A stretch of 64,000 bases of DNA from an uncultured Nitrososphaerota archaeon. Lineage in GTDB: Archaea; Thermoproteota; Nitrososphaeria; Nitrososphaerales; CADDZS01. A program made the translations under genes and the position numbers. The stretch spans positions 544,001 to 608,000 of the forward strand of contig CAWCYI010000004.1 in NCBI GenBank assembly GCA_963799845.1, read 5' to 3'. The first letter of the stretch is position 1; every line of letters begins with the position of its first letter. The notes under the pieces were generated by a model. That model was not told the origin of the DNA, made no database searches, and saw only the letters and a program-made list of their open reading frames with translations. Positions 25,021 through 50,153 of this stretch are shown in pieces.

Positions 25021-25171
25021 TACGAGTTCCCATTGATTCATTAAGAAAAAAATTTTCTGCGTTTCACACACGTGAGTACTTTTTGGCCGAAGAGCTACGT
25101 TCGAGCGCTGTTAGCTCAGAAGAGCTTGAAACGAGCTGAACGGAGCTCAGAGAGCTCGAAACGCCGAGTTC
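25021..25171 (+). repeat. AGCT-rich dispersed intergenic repeat, copy B (short form)
   Basis: AGCT at 25093, 25113, 25123, 25134, 25144, 25153; 19-nt end identical (reverse complement) to 50135-50153; 20-nt other end identical (reverse complement) to 31111-31130. Confidence 0.9.
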
Positions 25172-25215
25172 AATTCTTGGAGGTCAGCCGGTAGCTGTCC
25201 CGAAATCACGGCCGG

Positions 25216-25971
25216 TCAGCTTTCAGCGTCGTCCCGCGGATCGTATCCGATGACCTCTTTCGCGTGCGAGATGTCCCAGAAACGCCACTTGTTCTTTGAG
25301 ACGCCGTAGAAGACGTCGTATCTTACCTCGGTTTCAAGTGATTTTTCAACGAGTTGGACGAGATCGCGATGAGACAGCCACGTCGCAAAGAAGCGAACCT
25401 CCTCCGGTCTGGGCCGCTCGTAGGGGCGAACTGTTCCAATCCGAAGGCATATCACGGAGACTCCGTATTCACCCGAGTAATACTGCCCGAGCCCCTCCCC
25501 GAAAAGTTTGCTCGCGCCGTAGAAGCTGTCGGCTCTGGCGGGGGATAGATGCGACACCATTGAGATTTTGGAAGTATTGATTCCGCGAAACTCTCCCTTG
25601 ACTATGGAGGAGATCGGCCAGTCCTTCTCGTATAGTCCAGTGACATGGTTTGAACTCGCAAAAATTATTTTCCCGATCCCGTGCTTGCGCGAGGCCTCGA
25701 AAACGTTGTAAGTTCCCAAGATATTTTTCGAGTACACAGAGTCCCAATCAGCCTCGAGCGAGGAGTTGGCGGCGAGATGGATGACGGCATCCTTGCCCTC
25801 GAAGAGATGTTCGATATCATCCAGTTTCGTGATATCTCCCTTCACGCACTCTTTCCCGTCTGTTTCAACGTCGAGGCAGGCAAGTTCGTACCTGTCATTC
25901 AGAGCGGGCTTGAGGATTGTGCCGATTACTCCACAGCCACCGGTTATCAGCAATCGTTTCCTTGTGCTCAT
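25216..25971 (-). CDS. NAD-dependent epimerase/dehydrogenase (uronate dehydrogenase-like)
   Basis: ITGG.G.IG, FASSNH, YGASK.FGE, CLRIG, ATWLSHRD, YGVS.N. Confidence 0.88.
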   Translation of the reverse strand: MSTRKRLLITGGCGVIGTILKPALNDRYELACLDVETDGKECVKGDITKLDDIEHLFEGKDAVIHLAANSSLEADWDSVYSKNILGTYNVFEASRKHGIGKIIFASSNHVTGLYEKDWPISSIVKGEFRGINTSKISMVSHLSPARADSFYGASKLFGEGLGQYYSGEYGVSVICLRIGTVRPYERPRPEEVRFFATWLSHRDLVQLVEKSLETEVRYDVFYGVSKNKWRFWDISHAKEVIGYDPRDDAES

Positions 25972-26183
25972 ATTCGCAAGTTCTCCAACCTACAGTCGAG
26001 GAACCTCCTTTTTCAATCTGTTTTCATAAGCAGGCTTGACTGTCCAATCTGTTACGCTATCAAGAATCCCACAGTGGGTTTTGCTAAAAAAAAGTCAGCT
26101 ATGATCCATGTAACTTCGGGTGGTTTACTTTCGTTTTGATAATGCATAGTCCGAGTTCAGGAAAAATTCAACTCGCCATCGAG

Positions 26184-27399
26184 TTACTTGAGGGAATCGA
26201 GAGAAAGAAGAAAAGCACCCGCGATCCCAATCAGTGCAATAGAGGCGAGGGCCCCGAATCCAAGCGAGAAGCTGCCGGTTCTGTCCAGAATTATCCCAAA
26301 AAGAACAGGCGACACGATTGAGCCGACGTTACTGAGAGTGTTGAACACTCCGAAAGTCATCCCGGCTGCGGAAACTCCCTGTCTGGAGGCATAAGGTATT
26401 AGAGAAAAATCTGTCGCAAAATATAGGTTTGCCCCAAAACCGATCCCAAAAATCAATACAATCGTTGAGCCGAGCGATCTTGAAATCCCGAAGAGTAAAG
26501 TAAACAGAAAAAGAAGTACCATTGAAACACCGATGGTTTTTCTGCTCCCGAGTCGGCGGTCGGAAATGCCGCCGCAATACGACCCTATGATCGTTGCGAC
26601 GCCTATCAGTGCCACGATCCCGCCGGCGGTCGAGTTTGAGACCCTGAAGGTTGAGATGAGATAGTCGGACGCCCATGCGAATGACCCAAACGTCACTGCC
26701 ACGGATGCAAAGTTGGGAAGCATCAGCGCAAACATGTTTCTGGTGAAAAGACCCCTTAACCACACCTTCTGTCTCGCGAGGGTTCCGGAGATAGTGCTTG
26801 TCGTCCAGATTGCCGGAAATATCAGCAGGATTGCTGTAACGATCGAGTATAAAGTCGTGGCCAGTAGTGGAGGCTTCCAGTCGATTCCGGAAATCAGGAG
26901 CGGAAGAAGCGATGATGCGACTAGCCTGTCCCGCCCCGTTTGCAGATCCGAAAAGACCCATCGCCTTTCCGAGCTCATTTCTAGGGAACCACTGGGATAG
27001 GAGCCGCACCATGGAGGGAAAGACTACGCCCCCGGAAGCTCCTGCAATAAATCGTGATGCGAGTATTGCGTCAAATGAGCCGCCCGTGATAAACGGTCCT
27101 GGTGCAAGCGCCATGACGAACGAGGCCACGAGAAGTGTCCTTGCCGACCCAAACCGATCGGCGAGGTATCCTCCAGGTATCTGCATGGAAGCATAGGGGA
27201 TGAAGTAGAATGAGGTCACAAGACCGGTCTGCGCGTTTGAGAGAACAAATTGGTCCGTGACAAGTTTTGAGATCGAAGGAAAGTCGAGGTTGGAAAGCAC
27301 GAAGGAGACTGTAGCTGCAACCACGATGACGAGGACAAAATATCTCCGTTCGAGCGGTGCGTTGTGCCCCATGAGCGAATTCTCGCGATCTTGGGTCAC
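26184..27399 (-). CDS. MFS transporter (~404 aa), one 1-nt frameshift near 26925
   Basis: G.LADRFG.AR and WFP..E.G.A.G in ORF 26329-27399, continuing in ORF 26184-26978 (G.ISDRRLG.RK). Confidence 0.85.
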
Positions 27400-27477
27400 C
27401 GATTATCTTAGTCTAGAAAAGCAATTCTGTACAAGTCTGGACTTCTTGGCACGATACTGCTCTAAAAAAACCTATTC

Positions 27478-27572
27478 GGAATGAAAAACGTCCCTCCGGG
27501 GTGCGGGTCAAGCCCACGGCTTTCCTTCCTTAAACGGATAGTCAAGCTCTGCCCCGGAAAGAACGTCATTCC
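27478..27572. other. Long imperfect inverted repeat, candidate structured RNA
   Basis: GGAATGA..CGTCCCTCCGGGG ... CCCCGGAAAGAACG-TCATTCC; mismatches become G-U pairs on the minus strand. Confidence 0.45.
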
Positions 27573-27782
27573 AACTTTCGAGAACCCATTTAGCAGTTGT
27601 GGATTCCCGCCTCGATATCGGAAAGGGGAATAATTTGATGGGCAACCTTCGAGTTTGTGTCGGACTCTTGAAGTATTTGATTCCACAGTCCTACATTACC
27701 TGCTTGTGGCGAACGGAAATAAGAAAAAGAGAAATTCTCTGCAGTCAATCCGTTGGATATTAGAAACTGGCCCAAAGAATGG

Positions 27783-27814
27783 TAAGAAAACTAGGTTCCT
27801 CTCAAGTTTTCTTA
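27783..27814. promoter_or_regulatory. Perfect 10-bp inverted repeat, candidate operator
   Basis: TAAGAAAACT-N12-AGTTTTCTTA upstream of padR. Confidence 0.4.
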
Positions 27815-27969
27815 TGACTACCAGAATTTGACAATCTGTATACAATTTTTAGATAACAGAACCAAATATTTCATGATAAAGTCGAGCAAAATCTCGATCT
27901 CAACTCTGGCCAAATACGCATAATATCGTAATTGGCCTGCACGACGTTTCTACAGAGTATTCATTCCAG

Positions 27970-28410
27970 ATGTCGGAACAAGAAGCACAGGCCTCCGGAA
28001 GAAAGTCGTTTTTGGGATTCAACGATTGGTTAGAACCTGATGGTCCGGTAGACGAACCGCGTAGCGCGTCATCCGAAGAGCCGGTGATAACATTCGTTGA
28101 GCTCGCGATGCTCTCTATACTAGATTCTACTCCAATGACGGGGTACGTTCTCAGGAAGACGCTGCTCACGCAGTTCGGGCTGAAGACGAGCTTTGGCACG
28201 CTTTATCCCCGACTGAAAGCGCTCGAAAAGTCCGAGATAATCAAATATTCCGAGAATGTGGGTCGGCTCGCCACCCGCAAGTCCGGGATAAATTACGAAC
28301 TTACCCCATATGGTAAAAAGATCTTTAATTCGAACTTGAGATTATTTCAAGAGTACTTTAGAAAAATTCAGTCGAATGTCTCCGCTCGATTTCTTAAAAC
28401 GTCACAGTGA
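27970..28410 (+). CDS. PadR family transcriptional regulator
   Basis: LSIL...PMTGY.L, S.GTLYP.L..LE, YELT..GK. Confidence 0.88.
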   Translation: MSEQEAQASGRKSFLGFNDWLEPDGPVDEPRSASSEEPVITFVELAMLSILDSTPMTGYVLRKTLLTQFGLKTSFGTLYPRLKALEKSEIIKYSENVGRLATRKSGINYELTPYGKKIFNSNLRLFQEYFRKIQSNVSARFLKTSQ

Positions 28411-28658
28411 AATCCAGCTCAGTTTGATTTTTAGCGTATCAAATCACGAGCAGCCCCGATTTTTTGAATCCCAAAATTGCCCGAGTTTCGCCAGTTTTGG
28501 ATACCTAATATCCCGCAACCAAAAATCGATACTATCTGCGTTGGATATATACGTGATATATAGCTCACAAATCCATTTACGCGATCAGCATCTCTTAGAT
28601 TTCTAGTCAAGTATTAACCAGAAAACCCTTGCGATCAAAAATAGAGTGAATAAGAATA

Positions 28659-30029
28659 ATGTTTCTAAAAGACAGTAATGGTGCTAGATCTTCGGCGGCT
28701 ATTTCATTTAGCGTCTTGACGCTTTTCATTGTCTCTTCGATCTTTGTGTTGAGTGCCCTTGTGCCTACTACCGCTGCTCTAAATAATACGACGCCAGTCT
28801 TCAATGCTGCGTTTAACCTCAGTAGCGATAAGGGGAATGCAATGTACCCCATGGATGCGAACTCTGGTAGCCACGTCTACGTAGTGTGGACTGAGGGACA
28901 TGGAGGGATAATGTTTCGGTCCAGTTCGGACAACGGATCTACGTGGACTCCACTTTTGACTTCTCCGCCAATGAAGTTGAGCGTCGGTAGCTCATACATG
29001 CAGTATCCGGTGATACAGGCGAATGCGTCCAATGTTTATGTCGCCTGGACTCAAACGGTCGGTGGATTCCAGCAGATATATTTCGTCTCAAGCACTAATT
29101 ACGGCGCAAATTTCAGTACACCAATCGATGTTGATGGAAATACCACCACACAATGCGTCACGCCCGTTATCGGGTCTTGGGGAACTACCGTCTATGTCGC
29201 GATGGCGTGCGGCGGTGGTGGCGGTGTAAAGGGCTTTTCATATGTTGTCGCAAGTACAAAAGCCGGGGCCGCGGGATCATGGACAAAGCCGCTCTTGATA
29301 TCGCCGTTCCATGAGCCACAGCTTTACGCATCCGCCTTCGCGGGAGTTGCAGTTTCCGATCAAGGGATCGTGGTGACACAGGATAATGGTACTACTTGGA
29401 CGCCAGTGGTTATCTCTGGTTGTTGCGGCGGCGAACCGTGGGTGTGGGGATATGGCTCGAACATCTACATTGCCTGGGAAACTAAGGGTAGTATGAGCGA
29501 GACTTACTATGCGTACAGCCACGACAACGGTACCACGTGGACTCCAGAAATTTTGCTCTCGACGACAATCACGGATGCATGGGGACCAAAGATAGCAGCG
29601 TGGGGAAATAACGTGACGATAACCGTGACAGTGCATCCTGCCAGCCATTCAGCCCAGGATTACATCTACGTGTCGCACGACGCGGGCGTCAGCTTTACGG
29701 GTCCGATCGCCGAGAGTGGAACTTCGACAGACATCGGAACCACTCTGAATGTGAATGAGTATGGCAACTACCTGTTTGCGATCTACGGGAGAGAGACGAC
29801 TCCCAGCGGCACCTGGATTACGTATGCGACGTACAGCACCGATGGTGGAACAACCTGGGTTGCCGCGCCGGGAATTAACATCTCGAACAATGCGAACGGA
29901 GAAGCAGCGAATCCCAGTGACATTTCTTCGGGCTGGGTAATGAATTTCGGACCGGCGGCGTTCGCTTGTTGGTCTTACACGCCTTCCGGATCGTCAATTT
30001 CGCAGATATACTTCGCTTCATCTTCCTGA
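28659..30029 (+). CDS. Secreted Asp-box (BNR/sialidase-like) beta-propeller protein
   Basis: Signal peptide; repeated S.DNG.TW / S.D.G..F Asp boxes. Confidence 0.85.
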   Translation: MFLKDSNGARSSAAISFSVLTLFIVSSIFVLSALVPTTAALNNTTPVFNAAFNLSSDKGNAMYPMDANSGSHVYVVWTEGHGGIMFRSSSDNGSTWTPLLTSPPMKLSVGSSYMQYPVIQANASNVYVAWTQTVGGFQQIYFVSSTNYGANFSTPIDVDGNTTTQCVTPVIGSWGTTVYVAMACGGGGGVKGFSYVVASTKAGAAGSWTKPLLISPFHEPQLYASAFAGVAVSDQGIVVTQDNGTTWTPVVISGCCGGEPWVWGYGSNIYIAWETKGSMSETYYAYSHDNGTTWTPEILLSTTITDAWGPKIAAWGNNVTITVTVHPASHSAQDYIYVSHDAGVSFTGPIAESGTSTDIGTTLNVNEYGNYLFAIYGRETTPSGTWITYATYSTDGGTTWVAAPGINISNNANGEAANPSDISSGWVMNFGPAAFACWSYTPSGSSISQIYFASSS

Positions 30030-30128
30030 GAGAGTAGCGAGGAGTCATCCCTCTCCCTTTCTCTGAGGAGCTTTTTTCTGCATAGTTTTCTTATGGTTGA
30101 AAATATCGCGTGATCGTTTCCAACTTTT

Positions 30129-31028
30129 CTAATCTAACGATTCCAAGATCCTTTCAACATATTCCTTGGATTCCGCAGCAAGATCCACGAAGGACTTGCC
30201 CGTAATTCCGTAGCGGTAGGGAATCATGATCATCGGCCCATCAAAATTAATCTCGACCAGCGTCCTGACCATCGACTCGATGTCCAGAGACCCCTTACCC
30301 GGAACTAAATGCGAGTGTAAAGATATGATGTCCAGGTGGTCCCGGATCCAGGCCTGGACCGGCTTTATCGAGTCGGCCATGTGAACCTCGGAGAGTACGC
30401 CCTGGACAGCCGCATACCTGATCATGGCGCTGGCGTCGGCTTCCATCCGGCCGGCGAGGACGAATGTGTGCGGAGCCACGTAAATGTATTTGACGTTCTT
30501 GCAACCCGACTCGCGGATGAGGTCGACGCACGGATCGGATTCCTCGATGAAATCTCCGGGGTGCGGCATGAAAGCGAGCTGGATTCCCTCATCACGAAGA
30601 ACAGGATCGAGCTCCCTGACTGATTTTGTCCACGCCTCTTCATGGTCCAAGTGATAGAGCGGTCTCCCGCCCATCTGGGAGTAGATCTGCCTGCAGCCGA
30701 ATTTCTTGCAAAGCTTGATCAACTTTGTGAATTGCGCGACGCCCCTCTTCCGGACGATCTCGTATTCGGGATCGGCGGGCGAGCTGGGGAGCTGCTCCAT
30801 CGCGCCGGATAGGCCGAGGGCGTTCCAGGCGTTGAAGGTCACGAGGTCCGTGGGCTTTAATCCCGATTTCTCGAGCTGAGTCTGCACCGATTCGACGACC
30901 TGATCGTTTGGGATCATTCCCATTTCGATACCCGGAAACAGCATCGGGTGGAGCGCGACGTATTCGAAGCCCCGGTTTTTGAGATGATCAAAAGCGTCAA
31001 GGGAGTGCGCGTAGGCGGTTAACTTCAA
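30129..31028 (-). CDS. Sugar phosphate isomerase/epimerase (IolH-like TIM barrel)
   Basis: PHPGDFIE, Y.Y.APHTF, VH.ADS, H.HL.PG.G. Confidence 0.8.
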   Translation of the reverse strand: MKLTAYAHSLDAFDHLKNRGFEYVALHPMLFPGIEMGMIPNDQVVESVQTQLEKSGLKPTDLVTFNAWNALGLSGAMEQLPSSPADPEYEIVRKRGVAQFTKLIKLCKKFGCRQIYSQMGGRPLYHLDHEEAWTKSVRELDPVLRDEGIQLAFMPHPGDFIEESDPCVDLIRESGCKNVKYIYVAPHTFVLAGRMEADASAMIRYAAVQGVLSEVHMADSIKPVQAWIRDHLDIISLHSHLVPGKGSLDIESMVRTLVEINFDGPMIMIPYRYGITGKSFVDLAAESKEYVERILESLD

Positions 31029-31110
31029 TTTAGGTTATCCTGCCTACCTGAGATTTCAGACCCTTATAGCAATTAACTCAGCCCAGTCCGATATGATAAG
31101 AATTCAAAAC

Positions 31111-31521
31111 GAACTCGGCGTTTCGAGCTCCGATTGAGATACAGATAGGCGAAACAAGCTGTTTCAATTGAACAAAGCTGAGAAACGAGCTGAACAGAAA
31201 GTACTCTCTAGAGTGCTTCGAGCACGGTTGCAGAACTCTCCTGGGGGGGCCCTTTCCATACATAATCGGCTAAAATTTCCAGAACATCCTCGAAAACTCG
31301 AAAATCCAGTACGAAATGATCAACTCGACGATTGTCGAGTAACATCTCCATCAATGTTCTTTGTGTCACCGTTCAATTCGTTCTGAGCTTACTAAGCTCC
31401 GTTCAGCTTGAAACGAGCTCTTCTGAGCTTACAGAGCTTGAACGTAGCTCTCTCGTCAAAAGGTACGCGCGGTTGCGAAATCGCACAATTTTTTCTATAT
31501 AAGAATCAATGAGAACTGGTA
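31111..31521 (-). repeat. AGCT-rich dispersed intergenic repeat, copy C (long form)
   Basis: AGCT at 31126, 31157, 31176, 31188 and phased array 31386, 31395, 31405, 31416, 31426, 31435, 31446; tail AAGAATCAATGAGAACTGGTA. Confidence 0.9.
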
Positions 31522-31590
31522 TTTGAATGACGAGGGTTTTCTTGAGTCAGTTAGGTGCTTCTGCCTGGATTTCATATTCCTAGAATATCG

Positions 31591-32118
31591 TCACGTTGCG
31601 TTGACCACCAGTTCTCCATTTTGCATGTATGGATGGATAGCACAGAAAATGCTGCAATAGATTCTGAAGGTTCCAGCCTGATTTGCTGAGAACGTTAGCG
31701 TGTATGTTTCTCCCGGGCGCACGGTTGCGCCGCTGTTAAAATAGTGAGTTATCGCAAAGCCGTGGGATTCTGATGAAGCACAGTTGAAAACATGTATTTC
31801 GACCGTTTGCCCTTGGTAAACCTGAATCACGGGCCACGGTGTCGAAAGATGAAAGGCACTTCCGTTCATACCCTCATAATTGTTTCCCGGATCCGATTCT
31901 ATGATTGTGAAAGAAACGGTTGAACTCGTGGAGGAGCTGTTCGCGATCCCGGGGGCGCTCTGGGTGGTACTGATCACGGAGCATGGAGAATTCGCATTAG
32001 TACTAGTTGAGCCTCGGGATGTTAAAGCAAGTATTCCACTTATCGCCACGACCGCGATTATTGCGACAATTACGACAATAAGAAGTGGGCTAAGTCCCCG
32101 AACGGATTTCGATCGCAT
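31591..32118 (-). CDS. Membrane-anchored cupredoxin-domain protein
   Basis: N-terminal TM; HGF...PGET....F.A..AGTF.IYCSIFCAIHPYM. Confidence 0.85.
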   Translation of the reverse strand: MRSKSVRGLSPLLIVVIVAIIAVVAISGILALTSRGSTSTNANSPCSVISTTQSAPGIANSSSTSSTVSFTIIESDPGNNYEGMNGSAFHLSTPWPVIQVYQGQTVEIHVFNCASSESHGFAITHYFNSGATVRPGETYTLTFSANQAGTFRIYCSIFCAIHPYMQNGELVVNAT

Positions 32119-32172
32119 GTGACTGTCTCCAGTTCACCCGTCCCTGGATATATCGAAGTTCTTATGCTTCTC

Positions 32173-33042
32173 TCAGTGAAATAGAGCCGCGATATAAAGC
32201 AGCATGAATCCAACTGCCAGCGCGAAGAATTTTCTTCCACCGAGATAAGAGGGAGCATTCACACCAATCGCAAACTTGTCAGACAATGCCTGGGAGAGCC
32301 GTATCGCGGCGTAGAATGCAGCTGTCACTCCAAAAGCGTAGAAGTAAGTTGTGTCAAGCGAAATGTAATATCCCAGAGAAGTTCCGATTACGGAAGTCAG
32401 CCCGAAAAACAATCCCAGAACCGGTAAATGCCACTTTGCCTTCTGAGCTAATTCGGTTCGACCTATATAGCACGTGTAGACAATGGCTATTATCGAAGAT
32501 TCGAAGAATTTGTGAAGCGGATATGAAATTACGGCATTCCATCCTCCAAATGCAGTGACCAGACTTCCGGTCGTCGCAGCTGATGCGGCCGAGGCAAAAT
32601 CCCAACCCTCTCCCATACCGTGTATTCCCATCACCGCGGCGACCCCTATCGGAACTAGGACTAGGGTTTTCGATTTTCCTGTAGAAATTGAAACCTGTCC
32701 ATCCTCAAATTTTGAGTTTGGGACCGCGTAGTGGTCGATGATTGCAAGCGCTACAATTCCGCCAAGGAATGCGGCAATTACTGCAAAGTGCGTCGCTCCG
32801 TTGAACGAAGAAAATGGGTATATGGCATAATTGACATCAAGCTGGGCTGCGTCTCCCATCGTATCAAAGAAGAACCAGAAAGTAAGTCCAACTCCTGCGG
32901 CGGCTAGAATAGCTGTCTGTATCGGCTTTAGTCTGGGAATGATGAACAGAGCCAGGTAAGCGGGAATGAGAGTCCCGGCAATTATTGCTAATAGGGTAGT
33001 TCCGTAATCTATCATTTTTGGCGAAACTCGCAATTGAAACAA
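32173..33042 (-). CDS. ZIP-like divalent metal transporter
   Basis: About 8 TMs with GIHGMGEG and LHKFFE metal motifs. Confidence 0.7.
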   Translation of the reverse strand: MFQLRVSPKMIDYGTTLLAIIAGTLIPAYLALFIIPRLKPIQTAILAAAGVGLTFWFFFDTMGDAAQLDVNYAIYPFSSFNGATHFAVIAAFLGGIVALAIIDHYAVPNSKFEDGQVSISTGKSKTLVLVPIGVAAVMGIHGMGEGWDFASAASAATTGSLVTAFGGWNAVISYPLHKFFESSIIAIVYTCYIGRTELAQKAKWHLPVLGLFFGLTSVIGTSLGYYISLDTTYFYAFGVTAAFYAAIRLSQALSDKFAIGVNAPSYLGGRKFFALAVGFMLLYIAALFH

Positions 33043-33138
33043 CGTATTGAAGGTTATGGCTCAATCTGCGAACTCTGATCAAGTGGTGAACTTCGGTAAC
33101 GTATTAGAATAGAAGCGAGTTATCGTCAGGAGTGTAAA

Positions 33139-33567
33139 TTGCTCGATTCAATAATCAGCGGCAGTTGGCTGGTCACCTCTCCTAGTTTGAGTACCTCTTC
33201 GATAGATTGGGGTGACGCAGTGATGCACATTCTCATAGTTGCCCTATCTATCGCTGTGCTATCTGTATCTCTTCTTGCTTACAACAGAAGACGAAACAGG
33301 AGATACCTGTATCTTACGGTAGGGTTTCTCTTCATCTTCTTGAGTCAATTTGCAACACTGTTTGAGGTCGTATTTCTTTCTAATGCCCTAATAATAATTC
33401 CTTCGATCGGTCTTCATCTTTCTCATGTGTTTGATTTCTTGACCCTTATCTTTTTCCTGTTGGCGCTTTCCGGGTATGGACAGGAGGGAGCCCGCAAAAA
33501 GACAGTTATCGAGCCATTCTCAAGCGCTCAAAAGCAAGCACCGCTTGCTAACAAAAAGAACATCTGA
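33139..33567 (+). CDS. Small membrane protein (archaeal SL.AY.RR family)
   Basis: Three TMs, VSLLAYNRRR...L.L..GF. Confidence 0.7.
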   Translation: MLDSIISGSWLVTSPSLSTSSIDWGDAVMHILIVALSIAVLSVSLLAYNRRRNRRYLYLTVGFLFIFLSQFATLFEVVFLSNALIIIPSIGLHLSHVFDFLTLIFFLLALSGYGQEGARKKTVIEPFSSAQKQAPLANKKNI

Positions 33568-33643
33568 CAATGCTTCTGAGTACATGTTCAAGCAAAATAA
33601 ATTACATAATTCACTTTTTCCGTTCTTGATGGAAAAGCTGGGT

Positions 33644-34027
33644 TCAAATAACGATCAGCTTGACGCTTTTCATCTTGTCTTCCCTCTGGAATTCTTTTGC
33701 CATCTTGGAAACACGTTTTGCATCACCTTCGACAAGGAATAGCTCGACGCAATTTGTGTGTCCAATCTTGTTGTGAATGTGCGTCTTTACGATTTCGTCA
33801 AATTCGTGTTTAACTTTTGTAATCGGAGCCTCATCGGACTCATCGTGAGTAACAACTATGATCGCATTTGCCTTCCCAGCGAGAGAGTCTTTTTCCTTGG
33901 AGTCTTCGAGCAAGAGCCGAATAACTGCTCTAACCAGTTCAGACCGACCGGTAAATCCCCCAGCGCTCTGGACCTGATCCATTTCCTTTATCATCTGTTC
34001 CGGGAATGACAAACTGACGATTGGCAA
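33644..34027 (-). CDS. NikR-like CopG/RHH metal-responsive regulator
   Basis: IVSLSFP....D....GF.GRSEL.R, VTH, THIH.K....CVE. Confidence 0.88.
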   Translation of the reverse strand: MPIVSLSFPEQMIKEMDQVQSAGGFTGRSELVRAVIRLLLEDSKEKDSLAGKANAIIVVTHDESDEAPITKVKHEFDEIVKTHIHNKIGHTNCVELFLVEGDAKRVSKMAKEFQREDKMKSVKLIVI

Positions 34028-34168
34028 ATCCGAATTACCTCTAATAATTAATCAATAAGATCTACCCGTTAAGTTATTAATATTTTGATAACTATTATCA
34101 GTATTTTCGATAAAAGCGCGAGTGAAATTGGATATGTTTATCTCATAGGATAAGAATTCCCTCATTTC

Positions 34169-34456: not shown

Positions 34457-34681
34457 TGCCTAAAGCGAATAACAACTTTTCATTATCTTAATCAACTGTA
34501 CAAAGGCACGGAGATCCGTCCGTTTGACGTTTCGGCAGAATGGGTCACTTGTGATTAAGGCAGAGGCTTGAATTTTCCGTGGACTCTGCTTTTGCAATGA
34601 GATTCGGTTGAATTCTCGCCGAAACTCACACACCGCAAGCCGTATATTGAAAATTTCAACCGTGTTTTTCATTGACCTGTA

Positions 34682-42060: not shown

Positions 42061-42171
42061 AAGGGTACAAATGAGAATTGCAACAAGCGTCCGAAATTTG
42101 CCGATTCCACGAAATTTTCTATTCGTGCCATGACTCCTGATACTCGTGGAATGGCCAGCTCCCGCAAGAGT

Positions 42172-42693
42172 TCAGAAATCCCACAAGTCTGCGAAGTTTT
42201 CTACAACGTCTTTTCTTTGAAAGTCTTGCCTGATACCGGCAAGTAGCGACTGAACATGTTCTCTGTTTTGGAGTTCCACTTTGAAGTTTCCGTCTTCTGA
42301 AAGAGTCAACCTCACCAAGTTCGCGCTCAGGAGCTCGTGAACATGTTCGCTGACGGTTGACTTTGCAAACCCGGTTCTTTCGGCTAATTCTTTGTTCGAA
42401 AGCAGACCCAGATTGCCAAGTTCGAGCATGATCTTGAAAGTAGTTTTGCTCCTAGACAGAGAATAGATCAGCCTGTCTTTTTCAGACGTACCAGGAGGAT
42501 AGAAACGAGAGTAACCTGAACTCTTTTCGCACACGATTTCGCCCGAATCGGACATTTTTTCGGTGTTGTATCTTATGGCATTGAACGAGACTCCCAAAGA
42601 TCTTTGAAGTTCTCTCAGATGTATCCCTGGGCTCTGGCAAATAAGCCCGAGTATCCTCGATCTGTTGTCTGATCTCAGGCTCAAATCATTCAC
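42172..42693 (-). CDS. Tandem winged-HTH transcriptional regulator
   Basis: I...PGIHLREL.R.L, G..RFYP, ELA...G.AKSTVSEH. Confidence 0.85.
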   Translation of the reverse strand: MNDLSLRSDNRSRILGLICQSPGIHLRELQRSLGVSFNAIRYNTEKMSDSGEIVCEKSSGYSRFYPPGTSEKDRLIYSLSRSKTTFKIMLELGNLGLLSNKELAERTGFAKSTVSEHVHELLSANLVRLTLSEDGNFKVELQNREHVQSLLAGIRQDFQRKDVVENFADLWDF

Positions 42694-42826
42694 TCACTGT
42701 TTGACTAAGGATTCTATTAGAGTGAGCAACAAATAATTCAAGTTTTTCCATTTACGTGTTTCTTTAGTTCGTGGTTTGAACCTGTTTGGAGAGGATTATT
42801 GGTAGGATTCGGGGCCGATATCTGAA

Positions 42827-43240
42827 GTGTCTAGGAAGCTTATTAGTATCGACTCTTTTGTATGGGAGTGCTTGGATTTGAAAGACTCGGACCAGCTCAA
42901 GAATGAGAAATTCATCTTTCTGACGACAAAAGGTAGAAAGACCGGGAAAATGCACGTCGTTGAACTTTGGTTTGCTAACGCGAATAACAAGATATACCTG
43001 AGTCACGAAGGGGCGTTTACCGACTGGATGAAGAACATAGAAAAAGATGGCAGCGTGAAAATGAAGATAGGATCTGAGAATTTGGAAGGCTCTGCTGGCA
43101 TAGCTCCCATCGGCAGCGACGCAAGAGAAGTGGGAAAAAAGGCACTTTATGAAAAATATTACGGACCAGTCTCCCAGCAAGCGCTTGACGATTGGTTTGA
43201 ACTATCCGCTGTGATCGAAATCAGTCCTGACTCTTCTTAA
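42827..43240 (+). CDS. Deazaflavin (F420H2)-dependent nitroreductase-family protein
   Basis: LTT.GRKTG..H..ELWF, DW.KN; true start may be downstream. Confidence 0.8.
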   Translation: MSRKLISIDSFVWECLDLKDSDQLKNEKFIFLTTKGRKTGKMHVVELWFANANNKIYLSHEGAFTDWMKNIEKDGSVKMKIGSENLEGSAGIAPIGSDAREVGKKALYEKYYGPVSQQALDDWFELSAVIEISPDSS

Positions 43241-43336
43241 GAAAGATTGTTGCCTTTGAAGATACTAAAGGAACTAAAAATTCAATTCCGCAGAAATTTA
43301 CTCAACTAGCATATTCTCCTGATTGAGCAATTAGTC

Positions 43337-44908
43337 ATGTTTTCTGTTGAAGCGCTGATAGCTGCCTTTCTTGCGGTAATGCTACTCGCTTCGTTTATCT
43401 CGCTTAGAGCGAAAGTTCCTTACACCCTTGTTCTGGTAATCTTAGGAATAATTCTTTCCGCAGCATCCGGCCTCTCGATTCTGGGGCAAGCGAATATTCA
43501 GCAAGCTGTCTTACAAATGAGCTCCTTCTTTGCCGGCTTGACCGGTGGTCAAACCGGCGGACTCTTTGTAGGACTCGTGGTTCCACCTCTTCTTTTCGAA
43601 GCAATGATTCAGATAAGATCGGATGACTTGAGGGCGGTGATCAAACCGGCGATCGTTCTTGCGACGGTCGGCGTTTTGATATCGACGATTGTGGTGGGAC
43701 TGATATTATGGAAAATTGCCAATCTGTCGTTTCTCGTTTCATTTCTTTTTGCCGCGATAATCTCGCCCACGGATGTGGCAACGGTACTTGAAGTCTTTCG
43801 CAAAGCGAAGGTCCCGTCCAAGCTCTCTACCATGATGGACACCGAAGCGGCTTTCAATGATGCGACCGGAATTGGAGTTTTTACGATCATTCTGGCATCC
43901 GCGACATTTGGGAAAGTATCGGTCCTGTCTGCGGCGTCGAGCTTTGTGGTGTTGTTCGCTGGGGGCGCTCTTGTTGGTCTGATCGTGGCGTTTTTGGCAG
44001 AGCTGCTAGCGAGCGTTATTTCAGATAAACTGACGCAAACAATCCTGACTATTTCAGTTGTCTATGGATCGTATGCCCTTGCCTCATCGCTGGGGGTATC
44101 GGGGTTGATCGCGGTCGCAGTAGTGGGTTTGTATTTTGGTAATTTTACAATAAGGACGACGATGGGCCCTTCTTCGAGGGAGACGATTACCCTTTTCTGG
44201 CAAATCGCTGCTTTTCTCGGAAACTCGGTCGCGTTTCTTTTCATTGGATTCAGCACTGACATATTCAAAGTAGCAGCGTCGATTGGTCTGATAGTTCTCG
44301 CATATCTGGCAGTCACCGCTGCCAGAGCAGCTTCGGTCTATCCCATCCTCACAATTTTCGACAGATTTGACGGCAAAATACCGCTAAAGTGGAGAAATGT
44401 CAGCATGCTCGGCGGGATGCGAGGAGCGTTGTCGATTGCACTGGCTGTTTCAATTCCCGCCGCGGTACTTTCTAGCTCGGATGAATCGTTGTTAACGACG
44501 CTCGTTCTGGGCGTTGCTTTCATTTCGATAAGCATTCAGGCTGCGGCGTTGTTTCGGTACATTAGAAGGAAATTTCCTGCTGAACAACGTGCAACTGTTG
44601 AGAGTCTGAATGCGAGACTATCAAAATCCGCCTCTGCAATCGAGTCCTTGGAGAGGCTCAGGGAAGAAGGTGGAATATCCGACGAGGAGTTCGCCACTCA
44701 ACTTGAAAGCGATCGGGAAGAGCTTCGCGACGTTATGAGAGAAATAAACGCAAATGTAGATCCCAGGAGCATTCTCAGACAAAGAGCCGCCGAACTTTAC
44801 TCTAATGTCCTGTCAAATCCTGTCACCAGGGCGAGGCATGAGTTTCGTGCTGAGAAGAATGGCAAATCGAAAGGGGATCACGACAAAGACGAGGATGGGT
44901 CGAAATAA
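43337..44908 (+). CDS. CPA1 (NhaP-like) cation/H+ antiporter with C-terminal helical extension
   Basis: PPLLFEA, ISPTD, EAAFNDA, GGMRGALS. Confidence 0.93.
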   Translation: MFSVEALIAAFLAVMLLASFISLRAKVPYTLVLVILGIILSAASGLSILGQANIQQAVLQMSSFFAGLTGGQTGGLFVGLVVPPLLFEAMIQIRSDDLRAVIKPAIVLATVGVLISTIVVGLILWKIANLSFLVSFLFAAIISPTDVATVLEVFRKAKVPSKLSTMMDTEAAFNDATGIGVFTIILASATFGKVSVLSAASSFVVLFAGGALVGLIVAFLAELLASVISDKLTQTILTISVVYGSYALASSLGVSGLIAVAVVGLYFGNFTIRTTMGPSSRETITLFWQIAAFLGNSVAFLFIGFSTDIFKVAASIGLIVLAYLAVTAARAASVYPILTIFDRFDGKIPLKWRNVSMLGGMRGALSIALAVSIPAAVLSSSDESLLTTLVLGVAFISISIQAAALFRYIRRKFPAEQRATVESLNARLSKSASAIESLERLREEGGISDEEFATQLESDREELRDVMREINANVDPRSILRQRAAELYSNVLSNPVTRARHEFRAEKNGKSKGDHDKDEDGSK

Positions 44909-44919
44909 GTTGGATATGG

Positions 44920-45555
44920 TCAAAGACTCTGGCTCGAAAAAACTAGAAAATTAGGTTTATTCTTGGCCGTTTGCGTTTTCACTCCAGGCGATTGTTTTCT
45001 CTCAAAATACAGTTCACCGATTAGAGCTCCAAATATGATTAGGGCCACGTATTCGTTGTACGGGGTCTCGGTGACATAGCCTGCGAGCGGAAACTGAAGT
45101 ACAACTTTTCCAATGTACATGGATTGAGTGATGTTAGTATCTATCAGCGGAATCGAACCAGGGTTGGCGTCCCCCTTCGTGGTAATTATTTCATTCCCAC
45201 CGCTATCGACATCAATGTTTACGATTCGATGTATAACAAAACATGGAACCTGGGTCTCACTGACTAGGGATGAGGAAGGAGTACTATCGCAAGGAAACAT
45301 CTCGGAGAGTTGTGGAGCGAAAACGATTACGTTTCCCTTTTGAAGTTGATTGAACGGAGTCCTGGTGATAAGAGCAACAGAACCGGGAAGAATGGTAGGT
45401 TGCATACTCGTTCCGGTAACTATGGTGAACGGATAGCTCTCTTGGGTCACAATTGTCAAAAGACCATATCCGCCGATGATCGCCAACACCGGGATGAAAT
45501 AGAGAATGTAGCGGAGAAACCGCAGTTTTGATCTGCCGGAGCTCATCTTTCGCAC
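44920..45555 (-). CDS. Signal peptidase I (archaeal S26B)
   Basis: TGTSMQP, IHRI, TKGDAN. Confidence 0.88.
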   Translation of the reverse strand: MRKMSSGRSKLRFLRYILYFIPVLAIIGGYGLLTIVTQESYPFTIVTGTSMQPTILPGSVALITRTPFNQLQKGNVIVFAPQLSEMFPCDSTPSSSLVSETQVPCFVIHRIVNIDVDSGGNEIITTKGDANPGSIPLIDTNITQSMYIGKVVLQFPLAGYVTETPYNEYVALIIFGALIGELYFERKQSPGVKTQTAKNKPNFLVFSSQSL

Positions 45556-45744
45556 TCAATCCTATTTTCCATTAGATCAAAAAAATTCGAGTCCAGCGAT
45601 CGGTTAACCCAGTAATTTTTATGTGAATTTCAACCTATTTCTGAATTTTGGAGAGTCGGCCGATCATGCATCATGAAATCTCATGATACATAGTTCGAAT
45701 TCTTCTCATCTTAAATAGGCAAATTTGACTAAACGAAAAGTGCG

Positions 45745-47007
45745 ATGGAAGCCGAGAATCCCTTCAACAACGCTCTCGCGCAACTTGCCTCTATTGCCGA
45801 CATTGTATCAATAGAGCCTGAATACTATGAGATGCTGAAGAGTCCGAGGAGGGAAGTGATAGTTGCTCTTCCCCTGAAGTTGGGAGACGGAACTTCGGTT
45901 ACATTTACTGGGTATCGAGTCCAGCACAACAACGCAAGGGGTCCGTACAAGGGCGGGATAAGATATCATCCAAACGTTACCCTGGGCGAGGTGAAGGCGC
46001 TGGCAATGTGGATGACCTGGAAAGCTGCGGTGATCGACATTCCTTTTGGAGGTGCGAAGGGTGGAGTCACTGTCGACCCGAAAAAACTCAGCAATGACGA
46101 TCTTGAAAGATTAACGCGAAAATATATTTCCGCCATTGATCGGGACATCGGTCCGGAAGTCGACATACCCGCCCCTGACCTGAACACAAATCCTCAGACA
46201 ATGGCTTGGATAATGAACGAGTATTCCAGATTACACGGGCACAACGTGCCGTCCGTCGTGACTGGAAAACCAATCGAAATCGGGGGATCGGAGGGGAGAG
46301 CCGCCGCGACGGGCAAAGGAGTTGCAATTTGCACTCGGGAGGCCATAAGGAAGTACCTTCATCGAGATGTGAAAGACGTGACTGTTGCCGTGCAGGGATT
46401 CGGAAACGTGGGTTCGAACACGGTAAAATCGCTCATGGAAATGGGCGCGAGGATTGTAGCGATGAGCGATGTCGTCGGAGGTGCCAAACCCAAGTCGTCC
46501 AGCGGATATTTTGAACAGTCGTTTGAATCACTCATTGAAAATTCCACCAAACTGGGGTCAATTAGCAGGATTCCGAATATTCAGCGAATCTCCAACGAAG
46601 AAGTGCTTGAGACCGAGTGCGATATTCTGATCCCGGCAGCTCTTGAAAATCAGATAACCGAAAACAACGCAAACAAGGTCAAGGCGAAAATTGTGGTTGA
46701 AGCTGCGAACGGCCCTACCACACCCATGGCAGACAAGTTGCTTGAGAGGGCAGGAGTGAGACTGGTTCCAGACATACTAGCAAATTCTGGAGGCGTTCTC
46801 GTTTCTTATTTTGAATGGGTCCAAAACTTGAATCGTGATCATTGGACCGAGGAAGAAGTGAACAATCGACTGGAACACAAAATGGTGCACGCGTTCAACG
46901 AGGTAGTCACGCTTGCCGAGAAGGACGGGATTGACCTGAGGCGTGCGGCTCTGGTACTTGCGGTTAACAAAGTAGTCGCGGCGATGAAACTATCGGGATG
47001 GCACTAG
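45745..47007 (+). CDS. gdhA: Glutamate dehydrogenase
   Basis: RGP.KGGIRY, PFGGAKGG, DIPAPD, QGFGNVG, EAANGP, NSGGV.VSYFEW. Confidence 0.96.
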   Translation: MEAENPFNNALAQLASIADIVSIEPEYYEMLKSPRREVIVALPLKLGDGTSVTFTGYRVQHNNARGPYKGGIRYHPNVTLGEVKALAMWMTWKAAVIDIPFGGAKGGVTVDPKKLSNDDLERLTRKYISAIDRDIGPEVDIPAPDLNTNPQTMAWIMNEYSRLHGHNVPSVVTGKPIEIGGSEGRAAATGKGVAICTREAIRKYLHRDVKDVTVAVQGFGNVGSNTVKSLMEMGARIVAMSDVVGGAKPKSSSGYFEQSFESLIENSTKLGSISRIPNIQRISNEEVLETECDILIPAALENQITENNANKVKAKIVVEAANGPTTPMADKLLERAGVRLVPDILANSGGVLVSYFEWVQNLNRDHWTEEEVNNRLEHKMVHAFNEVVTLAEKDGIDLRRAALVLAVNKVVAAMKLSGWH

Positions 47008-47175
47008 AAATTCATGCTCATTCGAAATCTACACTCCTATTCCTTCTACCAGCGATTGATTGCATACTTGCCTAAGCCTTCATACATGATTATATGCATA
47101 ATTTCTGCCATTGGTATTAGGACAATCTTCGAGCTTAACGGCGTCCTGTAATACATCTGAAAAGTGTGAGTAAAA

Positions 47176-48123
47176 TTGCCATCATTAGAAGCTATTAATC
47201 TTAGCAAGGCTTACGGAAGCTTTACTGCCCTTTCTAATTTGAACCTCAAGATAGAAGGAGCAAAGTGCGTCGGTTTTCTCGGTCCCAACGGGGCAGGAAA
47301 AACGACTACGTTGAAAATATTCACCGACATGATATTCGCGACTCAGGGGAAAGCTCTCATCAACGGCATTGTGGTTCATGAGAATAAGAGAGCGGCGCTC
47401 GAACATTGCGGAGCGCTGATCGAAAGCCCTGAAATTTACCCTTCGTTCACGCCGAACGAAGCGCTTTCAATGGTCGCGGAGATCAGGGGCGTGCCATCCT
47501 CCGAAAGATCCAAGAGAATCGACGAAGCAATAGCTGAAGTGAAAATGGAGGAATGGAAGGACAAAAAGGTTGGGAAGTTCTCCAAGGGGATGAAACAAAG
47601 GATAAACATCGCTTCGTCGCTCCTTTCAGAACCCGATATCCTTATTCTCGACGAGCCGACCACCGGGCTTGATCCCAGAGGGCAGGCTGAGGTTAGAGAT
47701 ATCGTCAAATCTCTAAAAAAGAGAAACCGGCTCATATTCATGAGTTCCCATCTTTTGCCTGAAGTCTCGGATGTCTGCGATGAAGTCGCGATGATTGATC
47801 ACGGCAAACTGCTTGTCTACGATACTCTCTCCAACGTTACGATGAAGTTTTCGGGCGACGGTGGTGCGAGCATCGTCGAAATCGGGCTGTCCAAACCGAT
47901 TGATGATTCGATGGTTTCTGGAAGTATTTCGAAGGTTAGCGGCGTAATCTCGGTTGAAAAAATGGATTCCAGAAACTTGAGGATAAAGTTCTCCGGGGGA
48001 ACCGAAGCTCAGGAAAGATTACTTTCCGACCTGGCCTCGATGAGAATCGGAATGATAAGTTTTAGAGCATCAAGCTCCGCGCTTGAAGACACTTATCTGA
48101 ATCTGATCAAGGATACCTTGTGA
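47176..48123 (+). CDS. ABC transporter ATP-binding protein
   Basis: GPNGAGKTT, FSKGMKQR, LDEPT.GLDP. Confidence 0.95.
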   Translation: MPSLEAINLSKAYGSFTALSNLNLKIEGAKCVGFLGPNGAGKTTTLKIFTDMIFATQGKALINGIVVHENKRAALEHCGALIESPEIYPSFTPNEALSMVAEIRGVPSSERSKRIDEAIAEVKMEEWKDKKVGKFSKGMKQRINIASSLLSEPDILILDEPTTGLDPRGQAEVRDIVKSLKKRNRLIFMSSHLLPEVSDVCDEVAMIDHGKLLVYDTLSNVTMKFSGDGGASIVEIGLSKPIDDSMVSGSISKVSGVISVEKMDSRNLRIKFSGGTEAQERLLSDLASMRIGMISFRASSSALEDTYLNLIKDTL

Positions 48124-48130
48124 TCATGAA

Positions 48131-49003
48131 ATGACTCAAAACGAACCGTCGTTAGAGGGTAACAAACTCCCGACAAGCATGACGCAGGTGGGGATTATCA
48201 TGCGCTACGAGATTTTGAATTACTTCAGGTCTCGAAGATTCTTCATCCTCTTGGTAATCGCTCTTCTGATTTCTGTACTTCTTACGCTTGTGGTTGGCTA
48301 CTACGGCGTGTCAAAGATTGCCGGATCACCGCCGCAACCTCTCGCATTTTACGGTGCCTGGTGGGGATTTGCCTCCAGCCTGGTTGTAGTATTTTGCGCA
48401 GTATTTTTCGGTGGAGATGCGATTTCGGGAGAATTTCAGAACAAGACTGGCTACTTTCTGGTGGGAAATCCAATCCGACGTTCATCGATTTACGTCGGAA
48501 AATGGATTGCCGCGTTGATTGCGTCGCTGATCATAATTGCGGTGTTTACTGCAATTCTAGTGGGCAACGGATTCTACTATTTTGGAGCTAACATTCCGAC
48601 CCAATTTGGAGAAGCTTTCCTGTTCACTTTGGTCTATCTGATCGCCGCACTCGGCTTCACTTTCTTTTTCAGCTCGCTTTTCAAGAGCAGTTCCTTCTCT
48701 ATCCTTGTAACTGTGATTCTGCTGCTGTTCGGATTCAGTCTCATAGATACGCTAGTGACGAACATTGCAAACGTAGAGCCGTGGTTCACCCTCAGTTATG
48801 GTTCGGGCATAATCACAAACGTGTTCACGGTTCCCTATCCTAACCATGTATCGACTCTTAGCGGATTCGGCGGTGGTGGGAGAGGCCCATCTCTGAAAGA
48901 GTTTATCCCGACAATTCCGGAAGGTCTCGCCATAATGGTAATCTACTTTGCCGTGACCGCGATTCTCGGTCTCCTGCTCTTCGAGAAAAAAGAGTTCAAC
49001 TAG
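48131..49003 (+). CDS. ABC-2 type permease
   Basis: DAISGE...TG.F....PI.R..I..GK; 6 TMs. Confidence 0.9.
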   Translation: MTQNEPSLEGNKLPTSMTQVGIIMRYEILNYFRSRRFFILLVIALLISVLLTLVVGYYGVSKIAGSPPQPLAFYGAWWGFASSLVVVFCAVFFGGDAISGEFQNKTGYFLVGNPIRRSSIYVGKWIAALIASLIIIAVFTAILVGNGFYYFGANIPTQFGEAFLFTLVYLIAALGFTFFFSSLFKSSSFSILVTVILLLFGFSLIDTLVTNIANVEPWFTLSYGSGIITNVFTVPYPNHVSTLSGFGGGGRGPSLKEFIPTIPEGLAIMVIYFAVTAILGLLLFEKKEFN

Positions 49004-49169
49004 AATTTCTTCATTGCCCGTTGGAGGCGTTTGGAGAATTTTCGAAATTAATTTTAAGATCGTGGTTGCTTCGGTTCTAGGAGAATGTTCTCTGACTAAT
49101 CATCAGGAAGATAGTTCCTGACTTCAGTAGCGTTTAATCCTTAACTTGATTGCAGTCGAGTGAAATAAT

Positions 49170-49925
49170 ATGCGTTTTGTCAGATTCGTTTCCAACGGCA
49201 AAGTTCTCGAAGGCTCCGAGGAAGATGGAATTCTAGTTGAGACAGAAGGAAAGTCCCACATCGAAGCCGAGGTGGTCTGGTTGCCCCCGGCTACCCCGTC
49301 CAAGATCATTGGGCTGGTTCTGAACTATCGCGACCATGCAGACGAGCTCGGACTCAGCATCTCTGAAGAGCCTGTAATATTCTTGAAACCCCCCAGCTCG
49401 CTAATAGGAAACTTTGGCGACATTGTCTATCCTAGCGGAGTCAAGTACATGCACTATGAAGGGGAGTTAGCTGTCGTAATCGGCAAGCCGGCGAGAAAAG
49501 TCAGTTCCAAAAGAACGATGGATTTTGTCAAGGGTTTTACGATCGCCAACGACGTTACGGTGCGTGACTACATTTCGAACACTTTTCGGCCGCCGCTGAA
49601 AGCGAAGGGATTTGATACTTTTTGTCCGGTTGGTCCCTCTGTTGTCACTCCGGACGAGGCTGGAGATATCTCAAATCTGAACATCAGAACACGGGTAAAT
49701 GGAGAACTTCGTCAGCAGGGCAACACTAAGAACCTCATACATCCAGTTCCGAAGTTGATAGAATTTCTGTCAGATTTCATGACCCTTCTGCCGGATGATC
49801 TGATACTCACGGGAACGCCGAAAGGCATTTCCCCCGTACATCCTGGGGACAAGATCGAAATTGAAATCGACAACCTCGGCAAACTCACGAACACGGTTGT
49901 CCCGGAATTAGAAAATGCGGAATAG
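49170..49925 (+). CDS. Fumarylacetoacetate-hydrolase family protein (HpaG-like isomerase/decarboxylase)
   Basis: LNY.DHA.E, F.KP, HYEGEL, ND.T.RD, K.FDTF.P.GP, LTGTP.G; next to hpaB/D. Confidence 0.88.
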   Translation: MRFVRFVSNGKVLEGSEEDGILVETEGKSHIEAEVVWLPPATPSKIIGLVLNYRDHADELGLSISEEPVIFLKPPSSLIGNFGDIVYPSGVKYMHYEGELAVVIGKPARKVSSKRTMDFVKGFTIANDVTVRDYISNTFRPPLKAKGFDTFCPVGPSVVTPDEAGDISNLNIRTRVNGELRQQGNTKNLIHPVPKLIEFLSDFMTLLPDDLILTGTPKGISPVHPGDKIEIEIDNLGKLTNTVVPELENAE

Positions 49926-50010
49926 ATCCCAAGTGTGTTGCACGAGTACTTCGATTCTTAGTCTCGGATGTACTTTCAAAATCTTAACCATTGCGCACTC
50001 CAAAAGACCC

Positions 50011-50153
50011 CGTTTCGAGCTCTGTAGACTCAGAAGAGCTTGAAACGAGCTGAACGCATTGAACAGAGCTTGAACGTCAGCTCTTCGGCTGAAAAGTGCT
50101 CACGTGTGAAACGCAGAAAAAAAATTCTACTTAAGAATCAATGGGAACTCGTA
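50011..50153 (-). repeat. AGCT-rich dispersed intergenic repeat, copy D (short form)
   Basis: AGCT at 50018, 50037, 50048, 50067, 50079; flanks collinear with the reverse complement of copy B. Confidence 0.9.

Follow-up and report, generated by a model that had tools for sequence, protein, structure and literature searches.

Small inversions between AGCT-containing inverted repeats in a dispersed intergenic repeat family of an uncultured soil archaeon

Elements of the REP/BIME, REPIN and BOX types are short, non-coding, hairpin-forming and modular repeats that lie in intergenic regions, often beside the 3' ends of genes, and carry their modules in either orientation. In shufflons and invertase switches, segments of hundreds of base pairs bounded by short inverted sites occur in alternative orientations and orders. 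Template switching is reported to invert the loop of a hairpin alone, typically a loop of 4 nt, but also loops of 7-8 nt in bacterial rRNA (PMC8794818), and 'IR spacer inversion', that is inversion of the spacer between inverted repeats, is described as a class of template-switch mutation (PMC8604942). Likewise, hairpin-associated small inversions of 4-50 bp are reported for plastids (Kelchner & Wendel 1996, as cited in PMC12371153). Here we describe small inversions in a repeat family that is represented by three copies, named B, C and D, in a 64-kb stretch of DNA (C4:544001-608000 of the genome G000), which was analysed as a whole and is called the window in the following.

The three copies belong to a mosaic family of non-coding repeats that is scattered through the intergenic DNA of an uncultured soil archaeon. 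Each copy consists of an array of AGCT motifs followed by a tail, and blocks of the array are turned around between copies. These flips are exact, lie between inverted-repeat arms, recur in place at syntenic loci and do not cluster on a tree of the copies. They are probably inversions of inverted-repeat spacers, i.e. of hairpin loops, by template switching, with some exchange between copies. We infer both this molecular mechanism and the nature of the flips as nearly neutral by-products without a regulated function. G000 is a metagenome-assembled genome of 4.6 Mb in 9 contigs with 47% GC (completeness 86.7%, contamination 4.9%). Its copies were compared with those of a sister species (G003, loci L013-L033 and L113-L122) and of 28 contigs from a public metagenome collection.

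Flipped blocks in copies B, C and D

All copies were written with the tail to the right, and the spacers between the AGCT motifs were named g, f, a, b, c, d and e, with b as the central 7-mer. Copy B (25013..25178, minus strand), the best match to the tail profile (E 9e-23), comprises the tail (~25013-25092), the array (25093-25156) and a left terminus (25157-25178). Its AGCT sites lie at 25093, 25113, 25123, 25134, 25144 and 25153, and a degenerate AGCG is found at 25104. Module b of this copy (25127..25133, minus strand) reads cgtttca in element orientation and is located between the AGCTs at 25123-26 and 25134-37. Copy C (31372-31530, plus strand) has its array at 31386-31449 and its tail at 31450-31530. 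It forms the right part of a long composite copy (31100..31530, plus strand), in which it is preceded by a second repeat unit (31100-31290, with a core of the GGGGGGCCC type) and a linker. The AGCT sites of copy C at 31395-98, 31405-08, 31416-19 and 31426-29 belong to the order AGCT ccgttc AGCT tgaaacg AGCT cttctg AGCT. Hence its module b (31409..31415, plus strand) is tgaaacg, the exact reverse complement of the 7-mer in B. This reversal had been noticed in the original prediction, a first reading of the window, and was confirmed by direct reading of the tail-right alignment.

Copy D (50011..50161, plus strand) consists of an array at 50011-50082 and a tail at 50083-50161. Here a block of 35 bp, which in B (25113..25147, minus strand) reads AGCT ccgttc AGCT cgtttca AGCT cttctg AGCT and in D occupies 50022..50056 on the plus strand, is reversed relative to the tail. 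The same 28-mer is present twice in the window, both times on the plus strand (25115-25142 and 50029-50056), although the tail of D is the reverse complement of that of B and the two elements lie in opposite orientation. The first reading had pointed this out as well, and in none of 100 shuffles was such a match found, even with up to two mismatches permitted. D can be derived from B by turning a-b-c around, with f-AGCT and AGCT-d as arms that agree at 8/9 positions. The two AGCTs expected to bound the 35-bp block are degenerate in D (AGACT and CATT). Overall, the reversals hold up and lie far beyond chance.

In the commonest layout the array reads cgttctg AGCT ctcta AGCT ccgttc AGCT cgtttca AGCT cttctg AGCT tacag AGCT tgaacgt AGCT and is followed by the tail; the spacer lengths from g through f, a, b, c and d to e are 7-5-6-7-6-5-7. 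Start-to-start distances between AGCTs of 9, 10, 11 and 12 bp account for 45, 49, 55 and 17 of 210 spacings, respectively, and are thus near one helical turn, while a second group at 19-21 bp reflects a decayed rung or a 15-nt module. Several of the spacers come close to being mutual reverse complements (g/e, f/d, a/e and b/e). Therefore, the array is a series of overlapping quasi-palindromes, and its dyads, which overlap as well, have their centres at b, at c and at the AGCT that separates c from d.

Arrays were folded as single-stranded DNA and compared with shuffles. The z values were -1.58 for B, -3.05 for C, -2.62 for D and -4.17 for the L008 copy, which has the canonical layout; three other copies gave -2.54, -1.86 and -3.09. 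Three of four arrays of canonical or D layout folded better than shuffles, with B as the weaker one. The tails did not fold better than shuffles (+0.56, -0.01 and -0.95 for three tails). In copy D the hairpin spans 50011..50047 on the plus strand and has a 13-bp stem (cgtttcgAGCTct / agAGCTtgaaacg) and an 11-nt loop; in the fold of its sister-species counterpart, L033, the stem measures 12 bp. The flipped blocks are loops or centres of such local hairpins, and the stems are AGCT rungs with 2-9 extra paired bases. Every flipped block looks AGCT-bounded because dependable pairing comprises the AGCT, the sole fully preserved part of the stems, and a few neighbouring bases.

Flips in place at syntenic loci and across the copies

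Orthology between copies was judged by flank matches, and 16 comparisons at 14 loci were scanned for the best single inversion. At least four flips occurred in place, three of them in the same 15-mer, with collinear flanks. Copy C6_93622 (names of this kind give contig and position) and L031, which are syntenic on both flanks, read cttctgAGCTaacag and ctgtatAGCcagaag, respectively; the 15-mer c-AGCT-d is reversed with a gain of +8. The flipped core measures 11 nt and the score ties out to 25 nt, which gives perfect arms of 7 nt. In copy D the 15-mer between two AGCTs at 50022-50036 is reversed relative to L033, again with both flanks syntenic (ctgtagactcagaag vs cttctgacaatactg, gain +9). This 15-mer matches at 11/15 positions as reverse complement and at 6/15 directly, the flipped core is 11 nt, ties extend to 23 nt and the arms measure 6 nt. 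The third case is C4_1519801 compared with L016, for which synteny covers one flank since the contig ends in the tail. The 15-mer is flipped with a gain of +13 and a core of 11 nt, and b is reversed too. The fourth flip concerns b itself. L029 and L147, two lineages with ~80% identity that are both syntenic with C4:393989-396008, carry tgaaatg and catttca, respectively, i.e. an exact reverse complement that retains a locus-specific base, between 8-bp arms (GAAGAGCT / AGCTCTTC).

The scan score did not change when the flipped segment was extended by 6-7 bases at both ends (AGCTCT / AGAGCT), which places the breakpoints of the 15-mer inside AGCT-containing inverted repeats. The first reading had located the breakpoints at AGCT. 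This holds for the 7-mer in B and C, which is bounded by AGCT alone, while the breakpoints of the 15-mer may lie anywhere within the inverted repeats. Overall, the flips share the features of loop inversions: the segments are exact or near-exact reverse complements, their length is kept, the flanks are collinear, the events recur independently and pairing arms are present, apart from the 7-mer in B and C with AGCT only.

The remaining comparisons were less simple. C4_52788 and L025 are ambiguous, as b is reversed (6/7 match) and the left part is wholly replaced by the second repeat family. At the locus of C6_93622 the L135 contig displays a third arrangement, but it starts inside the array and was left uncounted. 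Four pairs were collinear, with small gains from inversions in unrelated flank (C4_125100/L017, C7_63080/L023, C3_16795/L030 and C4_152321/L149).

As proposed in the original prediction, module order and orientation were tabulated, here for 44 copies of G000. Among these, a-b-c-d stood in B order in 14 and in the same order with b reversed (C type) in seven. Four copies were of D type, in which the c-d block is reversed and followed by a reversed b and the 15-nt module. In about five copies c-d was forward before reversed b and the 15-nt module, about three belonged to a further type, and the remainder were singletons. A fuzzy pattern recovered 36 copies of B/C layout (24 from G000, 12 from G003) after three had been dropped, as their 7-mer fitted neither orientation. 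Module b was forward in 29/36 and reversed in 7/36, all of the latter from G000. On a tree of these copies, built from 170 columns after removal of the b columns, the seven b-reversed copies need seven changes (shuffled mean 6.6), and at least two changes are forced by well-supported branches alone. A single clade of b-reversed copies was rejected by the approximately unbiased (AU) test (p 0.009). All that the tree shows is that b varies in orientation independently of the remainder of the copy; it does not reveal the route by which this arose.

Explanations for the flips

Template switching at quasi-palindromes was the first cause named in the original prediction, and it is the best explanation, as it fits the folds, the inverted-repeat arms and the recurrent flips at syntenic loci. 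The self-complementary AGCTs would serve as perfectly paired rungs of array hairpins. During replication or repair the nascent strand would switch template across the stem and back or, alternatively, the two arms would recombine, and the segment between the paired arms would be turned around. Exchange between copies would add to the mosaic.

Several observations weigh against this explanation. More than one inversion separates the layouts in 6/16 orthologous comparisons (C4_393998 vs L029 or L147, C4_1356016/L024, C4_1831316/L032, C1_2341/L130, C4_1151258/L027 and C4_710879/L145). At the B locus the sister species differs both in the interior of the array and in the flank on the array side. 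Copies therefore do undergo replacement or exchange, and such events may look like flips. For the 7-mer in B and C the arms amount to the 4-bp AGCT, as ccgttc and cttctg are not complementary, so the stem is short. Moreover, the seven b-reversed copies could be recombinants with units of AGCT tgaaacg AGCT cttc, which abound in the second repeat family and also in copies of other layouts. The tree is drawn from recombining sequence, and strong support is confined to 3/33 of its inner branches. Conservation among the 36 copies of B/C layout reaches 97% in AGCT columns and 92% in spacer columns of the array but 76.5% in the tail, a difference that neutrality alone leaves unexplained; homogenisation of the arms or constraint may be responsible. 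This conservation and the recurrent 7-mer flips with 4-bp bounds are what plain mutation explains worst. Finally, the evidence from public runs consists of four runs of one study, with short-read contigs at a depth of ~7 or less that end inside or beside the repeats. One of these contigs starts at 31422, and variant letters at 31413-31462 stem from other copies of the family.

Exchange between copies in shifted or reversed register, the chief alternative, could itself produce apparent flips. Since the arrays are periodic and quasi-palindromic, copies could pair in this way, and gene conversion or unequal recombination would paste an apparently inverted block. The partner would be another copy or the second unit of a long composite, and the pasted block would end in shared AGCT-containing homology. 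In line with this, BLAST matches of the array fall on either strand at identical genomic sites, tail variants are combined with array layouts in varying ways, and donors of AGCT tgaaacg AGCT cttc are common. The array-side flank of the sister species at the B locus, where the array interior differs, matches a different G000 contig, and in C4_52788 vs L025, where the 7-mer is reversed, the second repeat family has also taken the place of the entire left part. Replacement of whole blocks between species was seen at the B locus and several others, and synteny breaks at elements in three cases. However, the 7-mer of L029/L147 keeps its locus-specific base when reversed, which fits a flip in place better than a standard donor, and the 15-mer flips keep both neighbouring modules and both flanks and have perfect arms of 6-7 nt. 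We therefore consider it unlikely that the flips as a whole arose by exchange. Exchange surely contributes to the mosaic, and it may be the source of the b-reversed copies of the commonest layout with its 4-bp arms.

Programmed shuffling would require a nuclease, a recombinase or an HUH-type enzyme acting at AGCT or at the ladder hairpin, so that the element would be a miniature shufflon. The original prediction had named this as a second possible cause, with DNA cut and rejoined or shuffled site-specifically at AGCT. Three features would suit such an enzyme: AGCT is part of every breakpoint, the tail is less conserved than the array, and successive AGCTs are spaced about one helical turn apart. 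In addition, six-frame searches of the whole genome (86.7% complete) for recombinase, transposase and methylase families yielded two Y1 (HUH) transposases, 15 TnpB-like matches and, with no specificity assigned, 12 matches to the N4/N6 methylase family. The same searches, which addressed the prediction's call for a methylase or a recombinase, revealed no serine recombinase (Resolvase), no C5 methylase (PF00145) and a sole tyrosine recombinase above the cut-off (Phage_integrase, C4:2115564-2116022), ~1.5 Mb from the window, with two weak matches elsewhere. No recombinase thus stands beside invertible segments. The Y1_Tnp genes (C4:750843-751196 and C6:729242-729595) each lie ~1 kb from a TnpB-like match, the nearest listed repeat copies are ~4 and 12 kb away, with none within 4 kb, and neither gene is flanked by repeats in the manner of RAYT genes. 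AGCT is not avoided in the genome. Its observed/expected ratio of 1.10 ranks 237 of 256 tetramers and is the highest of the 16 palindromic 4-mers. With neither a C5 methylase nor site avoidance, the signature of an AluI-type restriction-modification system at AGCT is absent.

The blocks themselves argue in the same direction. They measure 7-35 bp, and segments of known invertases are far larger; the copies are dispersed and intergenic without a conserved neighbouring gene, and the segments do not recombine parts of genes, as 40/43 copies lie outside crude open reading frames (ORFs) and indels break the frames. In 15/15 near-identical contig pairs (flanks 97.6-100% identical, 11 loci) the arrays of both members agree, with no flip and 0-2 mismatches over 114 nt; in a sixteenth pair, with flanks 94% identical, the layout differs. 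These pairs compare consensus arrays from assemblies that may share samples and are thus not fully independent. Taken together, programmed shuffling is very improbable. A slight chance, somewhat larger than that of programmed shuffling, is left for the AGCT ladder as a functional target, where a protein would bind the phased rungs or process a single-stranded ladder hairpin, for instance an HUH-type or other structure-specific enzyme, and the flips would be products of its strand exchange. If true, archaea would harbour a novel type of combinatorial element that is shuffled by an enzyme. An artefact of assembly or base calling might be suspected in a metagenome-assembled genome with 4.9% contamination, where repeats are difficult to assemble. 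Nevertheless, similar flips are found in ~44 copies here, in the independent sister-species assembly and in the 28 public metagenome contigs, and the contig pairs agree. Errors do not yield exact reverse complements between unchanged flanks, as the first reading had already argued for base calling, and the chance of an artefact is close to nil. Hairpin-loop inversion by template switching, supplemented by exchange, thus remains our preferred explanation, and the element is very unlikely to be a shufflon.

The repeat family and its comparison with known systems

In the genome 62 matches to the 80-nt tail profile were found, of which 43 are full length with usable flanks. Moreover, nearly all of the 51 genomic clusters with at least 5 AGCT in 70 bp are copies of the family. 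The core measures 170-180 bp, with homology from about -85 to +95 around the junction of array (about 75 bp) and tail (80-95 nt) and a sharp right edge. Between 9 and 11 copies, among them C, reach about -350 as a long composite of ~440 bp that includes the second repeat unit. This unit, with the core ...cacggttgcagaactcccctagggggcccctct..., ends in AGCT tgaaacg AGCT cttc and a tail-like stretch. It occurs solo or fused 5' of the main element, and eight long composite copies were aligned; examples besides 31100-31290 in the window are C4_1519554, C6_82289, C4_763431, C4_393742 and C6_339339. AGCT clusters without a full tail match were seen at C4:615602, C4:817416, C4:1816317, C6:502181, C6:852301, C6:1509015 and C7:145628. 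They look like solo arrays or decayed copies; C4:1816329-1816385 and C6:852294-852369 match only the array part of B.

For 42 copies with a gene on each side, neighbouring genes were tandem in 15 cases, tandem the other way in 12, convergent in 11 and divergent in four. Accordingly, in 38/42 copies the element faces the 3' end of one or both neighbouring genes, and positions on the promoter side are under-represented. A role as outward promoter or terminator was rejected, as the tandem cases (15 vs 12) show no orientation bias. A coding role of the array was also rejected, because the short frame that spans some long copies is broken by indels and stops in others. Copy D lies between a gene of the fumarylacetoacetate hydrolase family (49170-49925) and an HpaB-like gene (50469-51662). 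The HpaB-like ORF, on the plus strand, matches only positions 85-270 of the N-terminal domain profile, and an 84-aa ORF is found in another frame just 5' of it (50203-50457). This could reflect a frameshift, a mis-called start or a broken gene. Within the 64-kb window there was no match to an Rfam family and no tRNA. Elsewhere in the window, a family-B DNA polymerase ORF with intein-splicing and LAGLIDADG homing-endonuclease domains is located at 20726-23296 (minus strand). In addition, two direct repeats of 85 nt, 73% alike and with a spacing of 120 nt, at 61128-61332 (plus strand) resemble a periodic coding repeat.

In size and copy number the family resembles miniature inverted-repeat transposable elements (MITEs), as it is small, non-coding and present in 43-62 copies. 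Terminal inverted repeats were not found (local score of the consensus termini 6, shuffle mean 4.85, P 0.23). IS200/IS605 or TnpB ends were rejected as the source of the tail, as no listed copy abuts a TnpB-like gene; the termini were not aligned directly. IS200/IS605-type pairs of a Y1 transposase and a TnpB-like match lie at C4:749808-751196 and C6:728208-729595, and both TnpB-like matches contain an internal TAG; about a dozen further TnpB-like matches occur beyond these pairs.

At two syntenic sites the element of G003 (L028, L115) lies in an insert of 300-500 bp, whereas G000 has 65-84 bp of unrelated sequence (C1:110609-110674 and C6:1549910-1549994), with boundaries too blurred to read a target duplication. 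Presence and absence at these sites are consistent with mobility or deletion. At three G003 loci the synteny with G000 breaks exactly at the elements. In L026 the flank on the tail side of copy B (C4:568317-569006) is linked to one that matches C6:1054629-1055313, in L118 C6:1109276 is linked to C4:887065, and in L027 the neighbouring 2-kb block is inverted. Either recombination between copies or chimeric contigs would explain these breaks.

The family was detected in 2/7 genomes searched in the genus (G000 and G003); G002 and G004 contain weak matches of 21-27 nt only. It was seen in 0/34 more distant relatives, mostly incomplete assemblies. The closest named record, labelled Nitrososphaerales archaeon, has 89% amino-acid identity for the hydrolase beside copy D and is syntenic over 6.3 kb around this copy at 81% nucleotide identity. 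A description of the family was not found in the literature, where the full-text search was limited to miniature inverted-repeat elements of Nitrososphaera.

Small inversions between short inverted repeats are a known yet under-counted class of mutation, as they mimic clusters of substitutions in alignments. Alignments and trees of repeats such as those described here therefore over-count substitutions unless flips are recognised. With dozens of paralogous and orthologous copies, one archaeal hairpin ladder provides a natural replicate series, in which two blocks are even nested around one centre. The family could inform on how stem length and position relate to the flip rate, on template switching in archaea and on the diversification of mosaic repeats.

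Like REP/BIME elements and REPINs, the repeats are hairpin-forming, intergenic and mostly located near gene 3' ends. In contrast to them, the host is an archaeon, and no RAYT-like gene flanked by repeats was found in the genome. To our knowledge, the AGCT periodicity and the tail have no counterpart among bacterial mosaic intergenic repeats. Shufflons, too, consist of blocks that lie between short inverted sites and vary in orientation and order, as on the AGCT ladder. However, here there is no adjacent recombinase, the segments of 7-35 bp lie outside genes and the consensus contig pairs show one orientation. Closer similarities exist to the small inversions of plastids, which according to PMC12371153 are segments between short inverted repeats that invert in place, recurrently and homoplastically in non-coding DNA. 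Unlike these, the flips described here reside on an archaeal chromosome in ~50 paralogous copies, and they are nested or overlapping on one AGCT ladder. As in the loop inversions by template switching of PMC8794818 and PMC8604942, the loop is turned into its exact reverse complement without a change in length, and the stems are intact. The cases set out there are mostly single events in functional RNA genes, whereas multiple events have accumulated here in a repeat family. Besides, the flips include blocks of 15 and 35 bp that hold AGCT rungs themselves, unlike those cases. Thus, although the mutational process is known, the flips are a new and unusually rich instance of it, on an apparently undescribed archaeal repeat family.

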